The notes: a model not told the origin generated them from the letters alone. 64,000 bases of DNA from Thalassobaculaceae bacterium (GCA_965228875.1 OZ245843.1:372001-436000), one strand, 5' to 3'. Shown: positions 25,940 through 33,981, counted from the stretch's first letter. Program-made: numbers and translations.

Positions 25940-26809
25940 ATGCGCATCCTGAGTTTCGAGAGTGAGGGCCAGACCCGGCTCGGCGTGAGGATGGGCGACC
26001 GGGTCGTCGACCTGTCGCTCGCCGCGCCCGATCTGCCGCGGGACCTGCTGTCCCTGCTGCGCGCCGGCCCCGATGCGATGACCCGGGCAGCCGAAGCGGC
26101 GGCGGGGGCGACGCCGACCCTGGCATTCTCGGAGCTATCCCTGGCGGTGCCGATCGCCGATCCGCCGAAGATCCTTTGCGTCGGACGGAACTATGCGGCT
26201 CACGCCAAGGAGGGCGGGGCCGAGCCGCCGACCTACCCCGACATCTTCATGCGCAGCCGCCTTTCGCTGATCCCGCACGGCGCGCCGATCGTCCGTCCGG
26301 CCCTGTCCGCGAACCTGGACTACGAGTGCGAACTCATGGTCGTCATCGGCCGCCGCACCTCCAAGGTATCCGAGAGCGAGGCGCTCGACGCCGTTGCCGG
26401 CTACTCGCTGTTCAACGACGCCACGCTGCGCGACTACCAGCGCCGGACCACCCAGTGGACGATCGGCAAGAACTTCGACGATACCGGCCCGTTCGGCCCC
26501 GAGATCGTGACGCCGGACGAACTCCCGGCCGGATGCGTCGGTCTGCAGATCCAGACCCGGCTCAACGGCGAGGTCATGCAGAACGCGAACACCTCCGACA
26601 TGATCTTCCCCGTGGCCACGGTGATCTCCCTGCTCAGCCAGACGATGACGCTGGAACCCGGCGACCTGATCGCCACCGGCACTCCGGAAGGCGTCGGATA
26701 CGCCCGCAAGCCTCCGGTTTGGATGAAGCCCGGCGACATGGTCGAGGTCGAAGTGGAGGGCATCGGCGTGCTGAGCAATCCGGTCCGCGACGCAGAAGCC
26801 GCGGACTGA
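25940..26809 (+). CDS. Fumarylacetoacetate hydrolase (FAH) family protein
   Basis: KILCVGRNY, LDYECEL, NDATLRD, GKNFD, LEPGDLIATGTPEGVG. Confidence 0.92.
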   Translation: MRILSFESEGQTRLGVRMGDRVVDLSLAAPDLPRDLLSLLRAGPDAMTRAAEAAAGATPTLAFSELSLAVPIADPPKILCVGRNYAAHAKEGGAEPPTYPDIFMRSRLSLIPHGAPIVRPALSANLDYECELMVVIGRRTSKVSESEALDAVAGYSLFNDATLRDYQRRTTQWTIGKNFDDTGPFGPEIVTPDELPAGCVGLQIQTRLNGEVMQNANTSDMIFPVATVISLLSQTMTLEPGDLIATGTPEGVGYARKPPVWMKPGDMVEVEVEGIGVLSNPVRDAEAAD

Positions 26810-26828
26810 AACGGAGACCGAGCTGTAG

Positions 26829-28019
26829 TCAGCCCCGAACGAAGGTCATCTGCCGCACGTCGATGAAGCCGCCCCGGAACCCACCCTCGCAATAGGCGAG
26901 GTAGTAGTCCCACATCCGGCGGAACCGATCGTCGAAGCCCAGGCGCTCGATCTCCGTCCAGTTCTCGAGAAAGCGGGCGCGCCAGATCGCGAGGGTGCGG
27001 GCGTAGTCGAGGCCGAACGCCCGCTCGGTGTCGAGATGCAGGCCGTGGTCGGCGGCGAGATCGAGCAGGTGACGCCGGGTGGGCAGCATGCCGCCCGGAA
27101 AGATGTAGCGCTGGATGAAGTCGGGGTTCGCCCGATATTCCTCGAAACCGTCCTCGTCGATGGTGATGACCTGCAGCGTTGCCCGGCCGGCTTCCACCAG
27201 TCTGCCGCGAAGCTGCGCGAAGTAGTCGGGCCAGTACGTCTGACCGACTGCCTCGAACATCTCGATGGACGCGATGGCGTCGAACTGGCCGGTGACGTCG
27301 CGGTAGTCGCGGATCTCGAAGCGGACCCGATCGGCGAGGCCGGCGCGGCGCGCGCGTTCGACGGCATAGCCGTGCTGCTCGCGCGAGAGGGTGATGCCGT
27401 GCACCTCGACATCGTGACCCCGTGCCGTCTGCACCGCGAAGCCGCCCCACCCGCATCCGATGTCCAGAACCCGCTGACCGGGACTCAGCGCGAGGGTTTC
27501 GGCGATCCGGCGGTTCTTGGTGGCCTGCGCGACCTCCAGATTTTGTTCGCCGTCCTCGAACATCGCGCTCGAATAGGACATGGAGGGATCGAGCCACTGC
27601 GCGTAGAAGGCGTTGCCCATGTCGTAGTGGAAGGCGGCGTTCCGCCGGCTGCCGTGGCGGCTGTTGTTGTTGAGCCAGTGCAGCAGGCGACGGACGAAGC
27701 GGCGCGCTAGGCTGTCCGGGTTGCCCTGGTTGAAGGCGTATTTGTTGCGCTCGAACAGCTCGACGACGGCCACCGGGTCTGGGCTGGACACGGCCCCGTC
27801 CATGTAGGCCTCGGCGAAGGCCAGGTGGCCACCCAGGATGAAGCGCTTCGTCACGCCTGGATCGTGCAGGTGCAGGGTGGCGTCGGGGCCGTCGGCCGCG
27901 CCGGCGAAGACCACCGTTCGGCCGTCGGCCAGCACGATCGTCAGTCGGCCGACGGCGAGTCCTTCCAGCATGGCAAAGGCGGCACGTGTCCAGCGGTCGA
28001 CGGCGGGGATTGGGCTCAT
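26829..28019 (-). CDS. Cyclopropane-fatty-acyl-phospholipid synthase family SAM-dependent methyltransferase
   Basis: HYDMGNAFY, WLDPSMSYSSA, VLDIGCGWGG, ITLSREQ, SIEMFEAVG, FIQRYIFPGGMLP, YLAYCEGGF. Confidence 0.92.
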   Translation of the reverse strand: MSPIPAVDRWTRAAFAMLEGLAVGRLTIVLADGRTVVFAGAADGPDATLHLHDPGVTKRFILGGHLAFAEAYMDGAVSSPDPVAVVELFERNKYAFNQGNPDSLARRFVRRLLHWLNNNSRHGSRRNAAFHYDMGNAFYAQWLDPSMSYSSAMFEDGEQNLEVAQATKNRRIAETLALSPGQRVLDIGCGWGGFAVQTARGHDVEVHGITLSREQHGYAVERARRAGLADRVRFEIRDYRDVTGQFDAIASIEMFEAVGQTYWPDYFAQLRGRLVEAGRATLQVITIDEDGFEEYRANPDFIQRYIFPGGMLPTRRHLLDLAADHGLHLDTERAFGLDYARTLAIWRARFLENWTEIERLGFDDRFRRMWDYYLAYCEGGFRGGFIDVRQMTFVRG

Positions 28020-29545
28020 CGCGGCGCTCCCCCGCCGTCGGCGGTCCGGCGACCGATCTCCAGGGTCGCCCGGCCGGCGCCGTCGGTCACGTAGAGCGGT
28101 TCGAAGTCACGGGCGAACTTCGCGGCGAGGCGGTGGGTCGGCCTATAGCTGACGCTCAGGGGATCGGTCATGGCGCAAAAGGTCCGCGGTTGTTCCCGCC
28201 AGCCCTGGCGCATCTGGCGAAGGCTGCCGACCCGGACGCTCCCGCCGAACCGGACCAGGGGGCCGAACAGGCTGATCATCGACTGGATGGCGTCGAACGA
28301 TCCCCTCCGCGACCAGGCATGACGGACGGCGTGACGGACGAGCGCGGATTTGCGGCCGCGGAACCGCATCAGGTCGGCGACATAGGGAACCACCCGGTCG
28401 AGCGGTTCCTTCGGCCACTCGACGACCTTCTGTCCGTCCAGGTCGCTGAGCCGGAGATTGGGCATGAGGCGGCCGGCGCGGGCGGCCTCGTCGAAATACG
28501 GCGTTCCGAGGATCGGGATGGTGAGCGACAGCAGCGCCGGCAGCGGTGTCTGCGGACTGTCGAGCAGGGCGTCCATCTGGTCGTCGACATCGGCCACCGT
28601 CTGCTGGGTGAAGTCCAGCATCATCCCGTAGTCGAAGAGTACGCCGTATTCGGCGCACATCCTTGCCAGCGACAACGGATCGGAGGCCAGACTCTGGCGC
28701 TTGTTGAAGCTCTTCAGGATCACCGGATCGAACGATTCGACACCGGAGAACAGCGCCTTGCAGCCGTTCTTGGCGACCCGCGCGAGGTTGTCGGGGTTCT
28801 TGAAGAAGTCGCCGGTCACCAGCGCCCCCCAACCCCTGAAGTCGCCCCGCCGCCAACGCTCGCCGAGCAGGTCGACGCGCCGCTCGAAATCAGTTCGGTT
28901 GCTGCCGAAGAAATTGTTGTCGAGCACCATCAGCATCTGAACCCGGCCCATGGCCTCGAACTGGCGCGCGATCTCGTCCGTGGAATAGGGCTTGTAGGGA
29001 CGGTTCTCCCCCGTCAGCGAGCAGAACGCGCAGCGGAAATTGCAGTACCGCGTCGTCTCCACGAAGCCGAGGCCGAACGACCATCCGGCGAGATCGAAGC
29101 GCGGTCCGGGGTCTTCGGCCAGATGGCCGGTGCCGAGCGCGTCGTCGATCACCCCGTCCACGTCCTCCACGTCGCCCTGGCAGACGTGATCGAAGGAGGC
29201 CGCGCACAGTTCCGGCAGGGCGCGCGCGATCGGGCCGCCGATGGCGACGGTCACGCCCGGATTGGCGTCGCGGAAATAGGCCGACAGTTGTCGCGCCCGG
29301 TCGAACGCTGCCGTCAGGCCGGTGAGGATCACGAGATCCGGCCAGTCGAACAGGCGTCGGTCCAGCAGGGCGCCGTGATAGACCTCGTCGTAGACCCGGA
29401 CCTCGGTGCGCGCCGGACACAGCCGGCCGGCCAGGTAGTACGGAGCCATGGCGCGCGGAATAAACATCCGCATCGGGGCCGCCGAACGCCACGGGTCGAC
29501 ATAGGCGTTGACGATCAGAACTCTCGGCTTTGCGTTCGCGTTCAT
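28016..29545 (-). CDS. B12-binding-domain radical SAM protein (class B methylase-like)
   Basis: N-terminal Rossmann-like segment DLVILTGLT...VAIGGPIA; CxxxCxxC motif ETTRYCNFRCAFC; LDNNF, FSGVES, PILGTP. Confidence 0.88.
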   Translation of the reverse strand: MNANAKPRVLIVNAYVDPWRSAAPMRMFIPRAMAPYYLAGRLCPARTEVRVYDEVYHGALLDRRLFDWPDLVILTGLTAAFDRARQLSAYFRDANPGVTVAIGGPIARALPELCAASFDHVCQGDVEDVDGVIDDALGTGHLAEDPGPRFDLAGWSFGLGFVETTRYCNFRCAFCSLTGENRPYKPYSTDEIARQFEAMGRVQMLMVLDNNFFGSNRTDFERRVDLLGERWRRGDFRGWGALVTGDFFKNPDNLARVAKNGCKALFSGVESFDPVILKSFNKRQSLASDPLSLARMCAEYGVLFDYGMMLDFTQQTVADVDDQMDALLDSPQTPLPALLSLTIPILGTPYFDEAARAGRLMPNLRLSDLDGQKVVEWPKEPLDRVVPYVADLMRFRGRKSALVRHAVRHAWSRRGSFDAIQSMISLFGPLVRFGGSVRVGSLRQMRQGWREQPRTFCAMTDPLSVSYRPTHRLAAKFARDFEPLYVTDGAGRATLEIGRRTADGGGAPR

Positions 29546-29578
29546 GCGGCCCTGTCCCGTTCGGTCATCGCCACGGGG

Positions 29579-30715
29579 TCAGACCTGGTCCAGGCCGGCG
29601 AACAGCCCGAGGACGAAGATGGCATACACGCCGATGATCGCGTGGGAAATGATCGGCGTCACCACGCTTCCGGACCTCATGAACAGCCAGCCCCAGAGCA
29701 GGGATGGCAGGATCACCGCGATCGATACGATAGGGTTGAGATGGGCGTGCAGCACCGCGAACAGCAGCGTCGCCAGCCCATTGGCGATCCACCCGGCGTG
29801 ACCGACGACGCCCGTGAGAAAGCTTTCCATCGGCGCCTGCAGGGCGCATCGGGCCGCTACCTGCTGGAACAGCACGGAAACGAGATAGATCGACAGCCCG
29901 GCGGCGTAGACGCCGACGCTGTCCACCTTGGTGCCGTCGTCGAGGACGAAGAAACCGAACAGGGGGGCGTCCATCCCCTCGGGGCCGGGAACAAGCTTCA
30001 GCCACAGCACCTTGGCAGCCGTCATCGCGACGCAGAACCCGAACGACCACACGACCGCCTCGACCACGTGGCGGGGCGCCGGGCGCAGGTTCAGGCCCAT
30101 GGCCTTGGAGGAGGGGGCGATCCATCGGTGGATGATGAACACCATCACGACAAGCGTCAGCAGCGCCAGAACCGGGCCAAGGTCGTAGAATCTGGCCCGC
30201 GCCAGTTTCTGGATCGGCTCCAGCAGCAGCGTGAAGACGCTGAAGATCGTCAGGATGACGACGATGAAGCGGCCGGTCGCCGCCCGTTCGCGTTCCTGCT
30301 CCGCCGTCCTCGTCAGCAGTTCGACCCGTTCGCTCTCGTCGGACATCATGACCAGAACGCCGATCCGCTCGTCGGAGTCCTTGCGGTGCAGCAGCACCGT
30401 CCGGACGCTCAGGTGAAGGGTCCTTCCGTCATCGCGCTCCAGGCTGATGTTGGCGATGTGCTCCTCTTCCGGCTCGTGGACGGCCTGAAGCACGCAGTCG
30501 GTGAAAGCGTCCAGCCCCTCGATCGGCAGGAACACCTCGGCCACGGAACTGCCGACGACATCGGCGGCCCGCAGCCCGAAGATCGCCTCGGCCCCGGGGT
30601 TGAAGGAGGTCAGCCGGCCCCGGGGGTCGATGGTCACGATCCCGTCGCGCGACGAGGCGACGATGTCGTCCGTCATAGCCACTGGGAGGCTCTGGGCTGG
30701 GGGCAGGTTGTCCAT
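29579..30715 (-). CDS. PAS domain fused to a CPBP/CAAX-protease-like membrane domain with QQ in place of the catalytic EE
   Basis: PAS: DGIVTIDPRGRLTSFNPGAEAIFG...VVG; membrane part with FQQVAAR, LFAVLHAH, WGWLFMRSGSV, SHAIIG. Start uncertain (30751, 30715 or 30676). Confidence 0.8.
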   Translation of the reverse strand: MDNLPPAQSLPVAMTDDIVASSRDGIVTIDPRGRLTSFNPGAEAIFGLRAADVVGSSVAEVFLPIEGLDAFTDCVLQAVHEPEEEHIANISLERDDGRTLHLSVRTVLLHRKDSDERIGVLVMMSDESERVELLTRTAEQERERAATGRFIVVILTIFSVFTLLLEPIQKLARARFYDLGPVLALLTLVVMVFIIHRWIAPSSKAMGLNLRPAPRHVVEAVVWSFGFCVAMTAAKVLWLKLVPGPEGMDAPLFGFFVLDDGTKVDSVGVYAAGLSIYLVSVLFQQVAARCALQAPMESFLTGVVGHAGWIANGLATLLFAVLHAHLNPIVSIAVILPSLLWGWLFMRSGSVVTPIISHAIIGVYAIFVLGLFAGLDQV

Positions 30716-30843
30716 TCGCGCTGTCACCGGTTTCGGGCCGCCGCCAGCCACGTCGACCGCCGCCAGCCGCGGCCCGACCGCGAGCGGGCCTCACACTCTT
30801 AGTCTGAGAACGGGACGCACGTCCATCCCACGGCCGCCGGCGG

Positions 30844-31665
30844 CTACTGGCTGGCGACGACGCCGCCGTCGACGTAGACGACCTGGCCGGTCATGTAGTC
30901 GCCGGCGGGGGCGAGGAAGGTGATGATCTGGCCGGCGACCTCCACCGGCTCTCCGATCCGGCCGAGCGGGTTGCGTTTCAGAATGAAGTCGCGGAACTCC
31001 GTACGTTCCAGGTGCGGGCGGATGCGGTCGGACTGGATGAAGGTCGGGGCCACGCCGTTCACGGTGATCCCGTGGGGGGCGAGTTCCATCGCGTGCTGCT
31101 TCACCAGCATGAGAAGCCCGCCCTTCGTGGCGCAGTAGGCGGAGTATCCCCGCCCCCGCAGCGCCAGGTGCGACCGGACCGAGAGCAGGTGCACGTGGCG
31201 GCCGCGGCGTCCGGTGTCGACCTGGTGGCGGGCGACCGCCTGTCCGATGAACATGGCCGACCGCAGGTTGGTCGCGTAGACGGTGTCGAACACGTCCGGC
31301 GTGACGTCGAAGATCGACTGCTCGCGCTGGATGCCCACGCAGTTGACCAGGAAGTCGATGCCACCGGCGCGGGAGACCGCGTCCGCTACCGTACCGCGGA
31401 TGGCGTCCACATCCGTCGCGTCCAGCGCCAGGCCCCAGGCCCGTCCGCCGCTCTCGGTGATCTGCGCGGCGAGCGCTTCGGCCTTGGCGCCGGTGGGACC
31501 GGCGACGACGACGGCCGCCCCGTGGGCCGCCAGTGCGACGCAGATCGCCTCGCCCAGCGCGCCGTAACCGCCCGGCACGAACGCCGTCCGGCCGTCTAGT
31601 CGGAACAGCCCGGCAAGGCGTTCGGCGTCGATCGGCGGCGTCAGGCTGTCCGCGTCCTGAGTCAC
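30844..31665 (-). CDS. Short-chain dehydrogenase/reductase (gluconate 5-dehydrogenase-like)
   Basis: PGGYGALG, LVNCVG, YSAYCATKGG (YxxxK), VNGVAPT, PLGRIG, VDGG. Confidence 0.9.
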   Translation of the reverse strand: MTQDADSLTPPIDAERLAGLFRLDGRTAFVPGGYGALGEAICVALAAHGAAVVVAGPTGAKAEALAAQITESGGRAWGLALDATDVDAIRGTVADAVSRAGGIDFLVNCVGIQREQSIFDVTPDVFDTVYATNLRSAMFIGQAVARHQVDTGRRGRHVHLLSVRSHLALRGRGYSAYCATKGGLLMLVKQHAMELAPHGITVNGVAPTFIQSDRIRPHLERTEFRDFILKRNPLGRIGEPVEVAGQIITFLAPAGDYMTGQVVYVDGGVVASQ

Positions 31666-31666
31666 C

Positions 31667-32662
31667 TCAGACCTCCACGCCCGCGGCGGTGTAGACGCTT
31701 TCCATCAGCCGCAGGGTCTCCAGATTGTCGAGGCGGTCGGTCTCGAACGGGGTGCCGTCGCGTACGCCGGCGACGAAGGCGGCGACCGCGTGGTCGAAGC
31801 AGTCCTGGTACCGGGCGATCAGGTCGACCTCCTCGGCCGAGTCCTCCGCCCCGACGAGATGGATGCGGTTGTAGTCCATCATCACCGTGCCTGCGGTGCC
31901 GACGATCTCCAGCCGGTCGCCGTGCAGCGGCGGATACCCCGGGGCGCAGATGCAGCCGTCGGCGGTCGCGATCAGCCCGTCCGGTCCCTCCATGAGGATC
32001 GACGCGGTGTCCTCCCCGGGCAGGCCCTCGGCCAGGCGGTTTAGGCGCGCCGCCACCACCGTCAGCGGGCCGACCAGCAGACGCAGCACGTCGAGATGAT
32101 GGATCATCGTCTCGAACACCAGGTTGCGGCGGAAACCGGTGAGATAGGGCTGGCGCTCGACGAGGAACGGCGGGGCGCCGTCGCGCGGGCAGAGTCCGGA
32201 GCCGCGCACGGCGATGGCGGCGTGACGGGGGCGGCCGATCCGCCCCTCGGCCAGCCAGCGGCGCACCGTCATGTAGTGCGGGCGGAACCGGTAGTTCTCG
32301 TGGACCATGAAGCGGATCCGCTCCCCGATGTCGTCGACCAGGGCTTCGGCCTCGGTGACGGTCTCCGTCATCGGTTTCTGCAGCATGACATGGACCCCGT
32401 GATCGGCGGCCATGCGCGTCAGCGGAGCGTGTCCGCCCACCGATGCGGCGATGTCGACTAGGTCGAACCCGCCGTCGGCGAACATCGCCTGCGGGCTGTC
32501 GTACACCCGGTCGATGCCGAACTCGGCCGCCCGCGCCTCGGCCTTGGATCGGTCGAGGTCGCAGACGGCCACCACCGGAACCCCGGATGCCCCCCAGGCG
32601 CGCAGGTGGTAGACACTGATCATTCCGGCGCCGATCAGGGCGACGCGCATCGTGCCGCTCAT
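31667..32662 (-). CDS. Gfo/Idh/MocA family oxidoreductase
   Basis: MRVALIGAGMIS, VCDLD, MLQKPM, HENYRFRP, IHHLDV; ATG overlaps the upstream stop. Confidence 0.88.
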   Translation of the reverse strand: MSGTMRVALIGAGMISVYHLRAWGASGVPVVAVCDLDRSKAEARAAEFGIDRVYDSPQAMFADGGFDLVDIAASVGGHAPLTRMAADHGVHVMLQKPMTETVTEAEALVDDIGERIRFMVHENYRFRPHYMTVRRWLAEGRIGRPRHAAIAVRGSGLCPRDGAPPFLVERQPYLTGFRRNLVFETMIHHLDVLRLLVGPLTVVAARLNRLAEGLPGEDTASILMEGPDGLIATADGCICAPGYPPLHGDRLEIVGTAGTVMMDYNRIHLVGAEDSAEEVDLIARYQDCFDHAVAAFVAGVRDGTPFETDRLDNLETLRLMESVYTAAGVEV

Positions 32663-33282
32663 GCCGCGTTCTCCGCCAGCAGGGCGCCGAGATAGCTGCG
32701 GACCGGCGGGTGGCCGATCAGGCTCGGATAGTCGGCGATCGGCATGACGCTGCCGTTCTGGACGAAGATGAACTGCTCGCAGATCTCCTGCAGGATCTCC
32801 AGGTGGAAGCGCTCGTTCGGATGGACGCAGAGAAACACCAGCCTGCCCTCGGCGCGAAGCCTGCGGAAGAAGTCGAGCATGAAGCCGATATAGCCATCCT
32901 GGGTGTTGAACTGGGGTTCGTCGAAGAGGTGGACGACGGGGTAGTCGCTCCTCGCCCGCTCGAGCATCAGGTTGGGCGTCAGCGAGCGGAAGTGCCGCAC
33001 CTGATAGGACTGGTGGTAATGGATGGCGAGCCGGTCGCGCTCGTCTGTGCGGATGCGGTGGATGTCGCGGCCCTGCACCAGCACGCGGCCACCGGTCGGC
33101 GTGTTGGAACCGGTGATGAGTTCGAACAGGGTCGTCTTGCCCGAGCCGTTCGGCCCCATGAGGCCGACGATTGCCGGCGCCTCGATGGTGAAGTCGGCGG
33201 CCAGCGTGAAGGTCGGTTCCCGCTTGGGGAAGCCGGTGGTGTAGACCTTGGTCAGGCGATCGACGGTCAGCATGGCTGTCAT
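32659..33282 (-). CDS. Atypical short ABC ATPase lacking the helical subdomain and signature motif
   Basis: Walker A GPNGSGKTT, Q-loop HYHQSYQ, Walker B VVHLFDEP and switch His LCVHP present; no LSGGQ-like motif. Confidence 0.8.
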   Translation of the reverse strand: MTAMLTVDRLTKVYTTGFPKREPTFTLAADFTIEAPAIVGLMGPNGSGKTTLFELITGSNTPTGGRVLVQGRDIHRIRTDERDRLAIHYHQSYQVRHFRSLTPNLMLERARSDYPVVHLFDEPQFNTQDGYIGFMLDFFRRLRAEGRLVFLCVHPNERFHLEILQEICEQFIFVQNGSVMPIADYPSLIGHPPVRSYLGALLAENAA

Positions 33283-33285
33283 GGC

Positions 33286-33981
33286 TCAGATCCCGATCAG
33301 GTTGCGGCGCAGGTCGCCGTCCTCGGCGAGCGCCCGTGCCGGGCCCTGGTGGACGACGCGCCCGCGGTCGAGCACATAGGCCCGGTCCGCGACCTCGAGC
33401 GCCGCCAGGGCGTTCTGTTCGACCACCAGGACCGAGAGACCCTCGTCCTTGAGGCGGCGGATGGTCTTCATGACGTCCTGAACGATCTTCGGCGCCAGGC
33501 CCTGGCTCGGCTCGTCGAACAGGACGAGACCGGGGGAGCCGAGCAGGGCGCGGGAGATTGCGACCATCTGCATCTCGCCGCCGGATAGGTTCTCGGCGTC
33601 CCGGCGCATCAGGTGCTCGAGGGCGGAGAAGATCTCGAACATCTCCTCCATGCGCCACGAGCGGAAGCGGGTGCTGCGCCGCGCGATGGCCAGGTTCTGC
33701 GCGACGCTGAGGGTCGGGAAGATCCGCCGGTCGTCCGGCACCCAGCCGATGCCCCGCCGGGCGATCTCGTGGGTCGCCGCGTCGGTGATGTCGACGCCGT
33801 CGAAGCGGATGGTGCCCGAGCGCGCCGGCGTCAGACCGAGGACGGTACGGATCGTCGTCGTCTTGCCGACGCCGTTGGCGCCGAGCACCGCCACGACCTC
33901 GCCGGCGCCGACGTCGAGCGACAGGTCGAACAGCGCCTGGGTCTCGCCGTAGAAGGTATCGACGTTGCGGATCTCAAGCAT
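33286..33981 (-). CDS. Branched-chain amino acid-type ABC ATPase, LivF-like
   Basis: GANGVGKTT, VPDDRRIFP, LSGGEMQM, LFDEPSQGLAP, VVEQN. Confidence 0.92.
   Translation of the reverse strand: MLEIRNVDTFYGETQALFDLSLDVGAGEVVAVLGANGVGKTTTIRTVLGLTPARSGTIRFDGVDITDAATHEIARRGIGWVPDDRRIFPTLSVAQNLAIARRSTRFRSWRMEEMFEIFSALEHLMRRDAENLSGGEMQMVAISRALLGSPGLVLFDEPSQGLAPKIVQDVMKTIRRLKDEGLSVLVVEQNALAALEVADRAYVLDRGRVVHQGPARALAEDGDLRRNLIGI

Follow-up and report, generated by a model that had tools for sequence, protein, structure and literature searches.

A sensor-fused CPBP-like membrane protein and a radical SAM enzyme as the putative core of a membrane-lipid modification module in marine Alphaproteobacteria

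What might a radical S-adenosylmethionine (SAM) enzyme do when it is encoded between a sensor-bearing membrane protein of the CPBP (Rce1-like) protease family and a methyltransferase of the cyclopropane fatty acid (CFA) synthase family? This question is raised by three co-directional minus-strand open reading frames (ORFs), all with high third-position G+C, at positions 26,829 to 30,715 of a 64,000-nucleotide stretch of DNA from Thalassobaculaceae bacterium (GCA_965228875.1 OZ245843.1:372001-436000), hereafter called the window. A sequence-only reading of the window had proposed that the three genes form a new membrane-lipid modification system. Its observations are confirmed here and its interpretation is partly supported. 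With moderate confidence, we favour the view that the operon would be a signal-controlled membrane-lipid modification module, the core of which would be the radical SAM enzyme together with the sensor/pseudo-CPBP protein. In the following, P0001 designates the PAS-CPBP protein, P0002 the radical SAM enzyme and P0003 the CFA-like protein; G and L numbers are genomes and loci, G000 being the source genome.

The genes that belong together can be read from a census in which one genome per species was searched and which returned 59 loci, hence 60 with the window. ORFs of these loci were clustered, the clusters were named by Pfam, and a gene was scored as present when tblastn gave E <= 1e-6 over 40% or more of the query. 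Forty-six loci, with a radical SAM protein at least 57% identical to P0002, are referred to as close loci, and the 14 others, at 37-43% identity, as the sister clade. A sensor-CPBP gene directly adjoins the radical SAM gene in 46/46 close loci. It is of the PAS type, co-directional and upstream in 17 of them (Thalassobaculaceae and part of Roseibium/Labrenzia), of the PAS type and divergent in one, and divergent with a cyclic nucleotide monophosphate (cNMP)-binding domain in the remaining 28 (Nisaea, other Roseibium, Thalassospira, Pacificispira, two roseobacters and Rhodospirillales metagenome-assembled genomes). The CFA-like gene lies directly 3' of the radical SAM gene in 7/46 close loci (7/60 overall), namely the window, G001, G003, G004, G006, BAL199 (G012) and L074, all of them Thalassobaculum-like, and in these seven genomes the order CPBP-radical SAM-CFA is held at 63-82% protein identity. 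Because so few close loci have it at this place, the trio is a Thalassobaculaceae-specific elaboration, and the conserved unit is the radical SAM enzyme with its sensor-CPBP. The earlier proposal thus stands as regards linkage, which exceeds chance since the trio recurs in six other genomes and the pair in every close locus, but the system itself has to be redrawn around the pair.

Regarding the history of this pair, a quick tree of 56 radical SAM rows places all 27 cNMP-partnered rows on one side of a single branch, with a Shimodaira-Hasegawa-like approximate likelihood ratio test (SH-aLRT) value of 99, and the CPBP-less enzymes are likewise found behind a single branch (SH-aLRT 100). Kin share partner labels in this tree, which therefore reflects co-inheritance and not independent events. 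The family is carried by Thalassobaculum, Nisaea, Roseibium/Labrenzia, Thalassospira and roseobacters; Nitrospina, Woeseia, Gemmatimonadota and Myxococcota have sister forms of it. At a closer range, an orthologue is present in 4/10 other genomes of the genus and in 8/24 of the family.

The membrane partner combines two families in one protein. Counted from its likely ATG start, P0001 has 378 residues and matches a database form of the same length; Pfam finds in it a PAS domain (53 bits, 3.3e-14) followed by an Rce1-like domain (PF02517, 35.1 bits against a cut-off of 22.4, residues 284-373), of which it is the sole representative in the source genome. Hydropathy gives several transmembrane segments from residue ~160 on, and the AlphaFold2 model (predicted local distance difference test score, pLDDT, 76) consists of the PAS domain, a 48-residue helix (140-187) and a helical bundle. 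As modelled, this succession of PAS domain, long helix and bundle has the layout of a signalling protein. A Foldseek search with the model returned only PAS/LOV domains with a long output helix, the CPBP fold being thus matched by profile and not by structure, and the 60 matches listed from a PDB profile search with the partner alignment are all cNMP-binding-domain proteins, with no CPBP structure among the matches listed.

While P0001 matches the CPBP family profile, it departs from the catalytic motif set. Aligned with four canonical CPBPs of related genomes, QQVAAR stands at the position of EExxxR (EELMFR, EEVLFR or EEFYFR) and HAIIG at that of HxxxN, FxxxH being kept. The first Glu of EExxxR is the catalytic base in the structure of MmRce1. 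Q296, R301, H335, H370 and G374 are invariant in 44/44 aligned partners, at positions occupied in canonical CPBPs by E, R, H, H and N, respectively; Q296 and R301 are also invariant in 37/37 transmembrane domains, and at the second position of the first motif, PAS-type partners have Gln and those of the cNMP type have Glu. Compared with the CPBP glutamic proteases, these proteins hence keep FxxxH and the second His motif but have QQxxxR (QExxxR in the cNMP type) and HxxxG, an N-terminal PAS or cNMP sensor and a radical SAM partner. Judged by the alignment, the Gln and Gly changes would be no decay; they point to a retained, non-proteolytic function, because the Glu-to-Gln substitution is conserved across the 44 partners, and the earlier designation of P0001 as a pseudo-protease is borne out. 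Non-proteolytic roles of CPBP folds in lipid transfer or regulation are described for Staphylococcus aureus LnsB (lipoprotein N-acylation) and for CflP of group B Streptococcus (PMC7387801, PMC13692083). Of note, the C-terminus of P0001 (29579-29593) belongs to a conserved G-L/I-F-x-G-LDQV/I tail that is found in all PAS-type partners and is missing from the cNMP type. A complex prediction of the radical SAM enzyme with PAS-CPBP, run with two alignments, gave a score of 0.00 in both runs, which speaks neither for nor against contact.

What this pair may act on is suggested by its surroundings, which are rich in lipid genes across the radical SAM family, as the sequence-only reading had expected. 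A GT4 glycosyltransferase gene adjoins the radical SAM gene in 33/46 close loci, always convergent and never co-directional; at cNMP-type loci, the convergent GT4 gene is present in 27/28 and a metallophosphoesterase gene in 24/28. Six of the seven trio loci retain GT4 after the CFA-like gene, the window being the exception. In the source genome, a metallophosphoesterase and GT4 pair is found at G000:C1:3909328-3911110, 3.5 Mb from the trio, and is 51-57% identical to the pair adjoining the radical SAM gene in Nisaea and others. From domain content, these neighbours may be comparable to the PlcP/Agt phosphate-stress remodelling pair, NCBIfam giving weak LpxH-like and generic GT4 matches only. 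Other close neighbours are a ufaD-like flavin adenine dinucleotide (FAD) oxidase, DUF1365 and CFA genes (L053-L056) and a PlsC-like acyltransferase (L012/L036). In the sister clade, no CPBP gene was found beside the radical SAM gene at any of the 14 loci; a fatty acid desaturase gene directly follows it in 6/14, with a CDP-alcohol phosphatidyltransferase gene divergent upstream and patatin coming next in two of those six, and in the Nitrospina locus (L064) it is followed by a CFA-family gene. Four sister-clade loci carry before the radical SAM gene a 1135-1471-residue protein with adenylate/guanylate cyclase, AAA_16 (STAND) and TPR domains (L046, L065, L066 and L069, the last with AAA_16 only) and a fifth, L068, has a Ser/Thr kinase and AAA_16 (STAND) protein after it. 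These cyclase- and kinase-STAND neighbours are a hint that the radical SAM family may be under signalling control.

Further Q-variant cNMP-CPBP genes were collected by a Pfam search of relatives and by a profile search across the Alphaproteobacteria, in which 6/251 evenly sampled genomes, the source genome included, have CPBP profile matches. Away from the pair, such genes adjoin lipid genes in 6/7 places examined (Table 1), two of which are in congeners devoid of the trio (G005 and G009). Taken as a whole, the lipid link of the radical SAM/CPBP pair appears strong but circumstantial.

The radical SAM enzyme itself belongs to a family that has received no name beyond "hypothetical" or "B12-binding domain-containing radical SAM protein" in databases. 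P0002 is a member of the radical SAM superfamily by its cluster motif, its Pfam Radical_SAM score (45 bits against a cut-off of 29.5) and its fold matches, and the three cysteines of the CX3CX2C motif (C168, C172, C175) are kept in 59/59 aligned homologues, as are C262 and C297. A PDB sequence search returned no match at E <= 0.1, the ESM Atlas gave unnamed radical SAM clusters only, and no curated NCBIfam model came near its own cut-off: HpnR scores 21.4 bits against 650 and HpnJ 25 against 578, the HpnP model is absent from the matches, and the top match, the enzyme ApyD that modifies ribosomally synthesized and post-translationally modified peptides (RiPPs), reaches 45.6 bits, far under its cut-off of 750. 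The AlphaFold2 model (pLDDT 91.5) gives structural Z scores of 21.1 for AprD4, 18.4 for MgmA, 18.3 for OxsB, 18.0 for CysS, 17.9 for TsrM and 17.7 for MiaB, the match to AprD4 (PDB 6fd2; Foldseek E 3e-13) covering 377 residues with a root-mean-square deviation of 3.9 and 16% identity. With the class B radical SAM enzymes of lipid metabolism (HpnP/HpnR, GrsA/B, Gmm), the family has in common the Rossmann N-domain, the barrel with CX3CX2C and lipid-gene neighbourhoods, as well as a Z of ~18 to the cobalamin enzymes MgmA, OxsB, CysS and TsrM; it differs from them by HpnR/HpnJ scores far under cut-off and by a vicinity in which no hopanoid or archaeal-lipid genes are found. As to corrinoid supply, the source genome encodes CobS and the B12-dependent MetH, and CbiC (PF02570) and CobN (PF02514) have no match in this 100% complete genome, from which the organism probably salvages corrinoids, as Escherichia coli does, rather than producing them.

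These data have to be set against glycolipid head-group tailoring, in which the radical SAM enzyme would act on the sugar of a GT4-made glycosyl-diacylglycerol, for instance as an AprD4-like diol dehydratase, and the CFA-like gene would have been inserted later, with no relation to it. We consider this tailoring unlikely. It would account for the GT4 gene next to the radical SAM gene in most close loci and for the metallophosphoesterase in 24 of them, for a top structural neighbour, AprD4, that is a radical SAM sugar 1,2-diol dehydratase of aminoglycoside biosynthesis and stands clear of the next one (Z 21.1 versus 18.4), and for a Pfam B12-binding score under cut-off. However, the similarity to AprD4, at 16% identity, concerns overall architecture only, and no genes of such a pathway are seen in the radical SAM neighbourhood; the GT4 gene is never co-directional with the radical SAM gene, 11 PAS-type loci have no GT4 nearby, the GT4 pair of the source genome is 3.5 Mb off, and the sister clade is paired with a fatty acid desaturase, not a glycosyltransferase. 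Moreover, the PlcP/Agt identity of the neighbours is presumed from domain content.

Regarding the third gene, P0003 matches Pfam CMAS (PF02353) with 278.5 bits against a cut-off of 27, over profile positions 6-273 of 273, and the alignment with E. coli CFA synthase (6bqc) spans residues 46-396 at an E of 6e-57. In this alignment MSYSSAMF replaces MQYSCAYW and LQVIT replaces LHTIG, so that the YSSA and LQVI noticed earlier, in place of YSCA and LHTI, correspond to C139->S and H266->Q. The bicarbonate site of the E. coli enzyme is made of C139, E239, H266, I268 and Y317 (PMC3132707); the equivalents of E239, I268 and Y317 are kept in P0003, which thus retains three of the five residues and lacks the full set. 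Since Ser and Gln also stand at these positions in cotton cyclopropane synthases, which are active (E. coli C139S keeping 31% efficiency; PMC3132707), the two changes do not exclude activity. Nor are they special to this methyltransferase: all seven aligned CFA-like genes in or adjoining ufaD-ufaO operons have Ser (or Ala) and Gln, and the signature, common to these genes and the cotton synthases, was dropped as the mark of a new catalytic type.

The source genome contains three full CMAS genes. The one at 1.876 Mb has kept both Cys and His, and the one at 4.915 Mb, 61% identical to P0003 and likewise of the Ser/Gln kind, closes an operon of FAD amine-oxidase-like, DUF1365 and CFA genes (G000:C1:4914709-4918140, minus strand) with the ufaD-ufaO-ufaM layout. 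The remark that FAD oxidoreductase and DUF1365 genes are missing here is right for the locus, where neither flanks the trio; elsewhere in the genome they lie at 4.915-4.918 Mb beside this paralogue. UfaM, the cis-vaccenate 11-methyltransferase, forms 11-methyl-12-trans-18:1 on phospholipids. Judging by the gene content of this second operon, the source organism probably has, apart from the trio, a route to 11-methyl-18:1 and/or furan fatty acids. In Rhodopseudomonas palustris and Halomonas, the CFA-like product of ufaD-ufaO-ufaM makes 11-methyl-octadecenoate (PMC7380195, PMC12089945), and in Rhodobacter sphaeroides a 402-residue gene product at the same operon position is without fatty-acid phenotype (PMC7380195). 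A quick tree built from 16 sequences splits the seven radical SAM-linked from the seven ufaD/ufaO-linked CFA genes by a branch (SH-aLRT 99), the two being sister groups and both far from canonical Cfa. P0003 thus has the full-length CMAS fold and the Ser/Gln subtype in common with the operon-linked enzymes; unlike UfaM, it is coupled to a radical SAM gene instead of standing beside ufaD/ufaO, and it falls in a lineage of its own. The 61% identical paralogue, the common Ser/Gln and the sister placement in the tree argue for P0003 being a diverged duplicate within the UfaM-type subfamily.

From these elements the following mechanism can be proposed. A soluble radical SAM enzyme would work with a membrane protein in which a cytoplasmic sensor, PAS here and cNMP-binding in most relatives, is fused to a CPBP/Rce1-like bundle. 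This disabled bundle would cut no proteins and would serve instead as a membrane partner that, under the control of the sensor, tethers and/or gates the radical SAM enzyme or offers it a lipid chain. The radical SAM enzyme would carry out radical chemistry on a membrane lipid, that is, C-methylation if it binds cobalamin, and desaturation, cyclisation or another C-H functionalisation if it does not. Duplication of a UfaM/CFA-type methyltransferase gene in the Thalassobaculum lineage would have led to a copy that was inserted behind the radical SAM gene and became translationally coupled to it. The enzyme encoded by this copy would use SAM to convert, by alkylation, a cis double bond in the acyl chain of a phospholipid into a methyl-alkene or a cyclopropane, which might be the substrate of the radical step, unless the methyltransferase step comes after the radical one. 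A bolder extension, which we put forward tentatively and hold to be doubtful, is that sensor-fused Glu-to-Gln CPBP-like proteins would represent a new class of ligand-gated membrane adaptors recruiting or gating radical SAM enzymes, desaturases and CFA-type methyltransferases, the present operon making a doubly modified acyl chain (one polar and one radical alkylation) under PAS control.

Several points weigh against a lipid module of this kind. We infer its substrate and reaction, as well as the role of the CPBP-like protein and any contact between the proteins. Cobalamin binding is a candidate property only: Pfam B12-binding (PF02310) scores 28.7 bits in P0002, under its cut-off of 32.1, and the same Rossmann-plus-barrel architecture is found in cobalamin-dependent enzymes and in AprD4, the top fold match, which we take to be cobalamin-independent and to act on a sugar. 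Many census loci are kin, the GT4 and metallophosphoesterase genes, being convergent, are not co-transcribed with the pair, and no recognised lipid gene was found near the pair in 10 Roseibium PAS-type loci and L026. In the window, the flanks of the trio belong to unrelated metabolism. The Ser/Gln signature does not, as far as the alignments go, tell whether the product would be a methyl-alkene or a cyclopropane. Finally, the radical SAM gene is in three pieces in G001 (L007/L018) and in two in G012 (L009/L017), with one in-frame TAA, and the CPBP gene is in two pieces in G001, where both genes look frameshifted; these breaks are either sequencing errors or pseudogenes. As the radical SAM enzyme looks broken in these two genomes while the CFA-like gene stays intact in both, the methyltransferase may work alone.

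This last point, along with the presence of the CFA-like gene in only 7/46 close loci, would also be expected if the three genes were functionally independent, P0003 being a second UfaM/CFA synthase and the radical SAM pair unrelated to it. Such independence is improbable in our view: it is at odds with the translational coupling through ATGA, with the gene order held in seven genomes, with the CFA-family gene that also follows the distant Nitrospina radical SAM gene, and with the tight lineage that the radical SAM-linked CFA genes form apart from the ufaD/ufaO-linked ones.

Could the substrate be a protein instead of a lipid? The radical SAM enzyme might act on a RiPP-like peptide, a protein or the CPBP tail, and the CPBP-like protein might be a maturation or immunity factor; CPBP proteins take part in bacteriocin maturation and immunity. 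The match to ApyD, far under cut-off as it is, and the conserved LDQV/LDQI tail encoded just before the radical SAM gene in PAS-type loci would fit with this, yet we find it quite improbable. A precursor gene would not fit into the 33-bp spacer of the window nor into the spacers of ~28-44 bp (tblastn alignment ends) in 13/17 co-directional PAS-type loci, those of L038, L040, L041 and L074 being larger; no conserved small ORF cluster emerged among the census loci, the catalytic Glu is Gln in all aligned CPBP partners, and lipid genes, rather than transporters or leader peptidases, make up the neighbourhoods. A role in signalling or defence, with a cNMP- or PAS-triggered membrane effector and an accessory radical SAM enzyme as in cyclic-nucleotide defence systems, is very improbable: the partner cNMP-binding domain resembles Pycsar effectors (PADLOC PycTIR, 3.8e-12, domain level only), sister-clade radical SAM genes adjoin cyclase-STAND or kinase-STAND proteins and patatin, and the distribution within the genus is patchy, but PADLOC gives no match for P0001 or P0002 and matches P0003 via a generic methyltransferase domain only, the pair stays beside the same GT4/metallophosphoesterase genes across several families, and the locus, of even composition, has no mobile-element genes.

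The layout of the locus, with its co-directional genes, 33-bp spacer and ATGA overlap, was read directly and agrees with what had first been described (Table 1). The source genome (4.96 Mb, 67% G+C, a single contig) has its nearest relatives among the Thalassobaculaceae, a group of marine Alphaproteobacteria that includes Thalassobaculum. Upstream and co-directional with the trio lie genes for a Liv-type ABC transporter, a GFO/IDH/MocA oxidoreductase and an SDR, and downstream a convergent FAA hydrolase gene, for which congeners have elsewhere only ~40% identical paralogues; that end of the locus is therefore not conserved. In G009, the lipid-like cassette listed in Table 1 directly follows orthologues of the ABC-GFO-SDR genes found before the trio in the window, and this site may be a variable hotspot. 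A 663-residue ORF at 31667-33658 (minus strand) is over-extended: the GFO/IDH/MocA match is confined to its C-terminal 327 residues (31667-32650), and the rest is covered by ABC-transporter ATPase genes in other frames (32659-33282 and 33286-33981). A scan of 26500-32000 gave no promoter-like site and two terminator-like sites, both on the wrong strand and no more than in shuffles. Rfam has no match over the whole window, hence no cobalamin or SAM riboswitch.

Table 1. Positions of the trio and its motifs in the window, and places where Q-variant cNMP-CPBP genes lie away from the radical SAM/CPBP pair
Feature	Position	Strand	Basis or remark
PAS and CPBP-like (Rce1-like) polytopic membrane protein, P0001	29579..30751	-	ORF opens at GTG; likely start ATG 30715
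Cytoplasmic PAS sensor domain (residues 28-143)	30323..30670	-	Pfam PAS, Foldseek
QQVAAR, CPBP motif 1 with both Glu replaced by Gln (Q296, Q297, R301)	29849..29866	-	Alignment to canonical CPBPs
Spacer between CPBP-like and radical SAM genes, 33 bp	29546..29578	-	Read from sequence
Radical SAM enzyme, P0002: Rossmann (B12-binding-like) N-domain, radical SAM barrel, C-terminal helical domain	28016..29545	-	Pfam, AlphaFold2 model
CNFRCAFC, CX3CX2C [4Fe-4S] motif (C168, C172, C175)	29021..29044	-	Homologue alignment
ATGA stop/start overlap of radical SAM and methyltransferase genes	28016..28019	-	Read from sequence
CFA-synthase-family (CMAS) SAM-dependent acyl-chain methyltransferase, Ser/Gln subtype, P0003	26829..28019	-	Pfam, 6bqc alignment
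YSSA (E. coli YSCA), bicarbonate-site Cys to Ser	27564..27575	-	6bqc alignment
LQVI (E. coli LHTI), bicarbonate-site His to Gln	27165..27176	-	6bqc alignment
GDPD, fatty acid desaturase, CPBP, CDP-OH transferase/cytidylyltransferase fusion	G067		Overlapping genes
CPBP, methyltransferase, CFA, MGDG-synthase-like gene, fatty acid desaturase	G006		
Two radical SAM genes, DUF6962, epimerase, glycosyltransferase, fatty acid desaturase, CPBP (QE variant), HlyD, RND	G005 (L104), G005:C1:1360000-1376000		
As in G005, with a methyltransferase between desaturase and CPBP	G009 (L105), G009:C1:592000-608000		One radical SAM gene, at stretch edge
CPBP, GDPD	G240		
CPBP beside FabA/acyltransferase protein	G069		
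CPBP, second copy	G069		No clear lipid neighbour assigned

The radical SAM enzymes of lipid metabolism covered in the excerpt of a 2026 review are Tes, Mss, Gms, GrsA/B, Gmm, Cds, HpnH/J/P/R, Jaw5 and ladderane candidates, with hopanoids, archaeal ethers, ladderanes and a polyketide as substrates, and the family described here is not among the enzymes that this excerpt names (PMC13459092). No paper describing the radical SAM and CPBP pair or the trio was found in our literature searches, supplementary files not being covered. To our knowledge, no radical SAM enzyme of aerobic marine Alphaproteobacteria has ordinary bacterial acyl lipids as its substrate, and we know of no earlier description of a post-translational, signal-dependent control of membrane chemistry by a sensor-CPBP protein. 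That CFA-family enzymes and radical SAM enzymes tailor lipids is already known, and the uncharacterised partner CPBP family may turn out to hold the greater interest. Given the groups in which it and its sister forms occur, the radical SAM family could be a source of the unassigned methyl-branched or otherwise modified lipids of marine samples. The CPBP protein with its invariant Glu-to-Gln change and its PAS or cNMP sensor points, for its part, to such a post-translational and signal-dependent mode of control, by which a large class of 'dead' CPBP proteins would gain a testable role.

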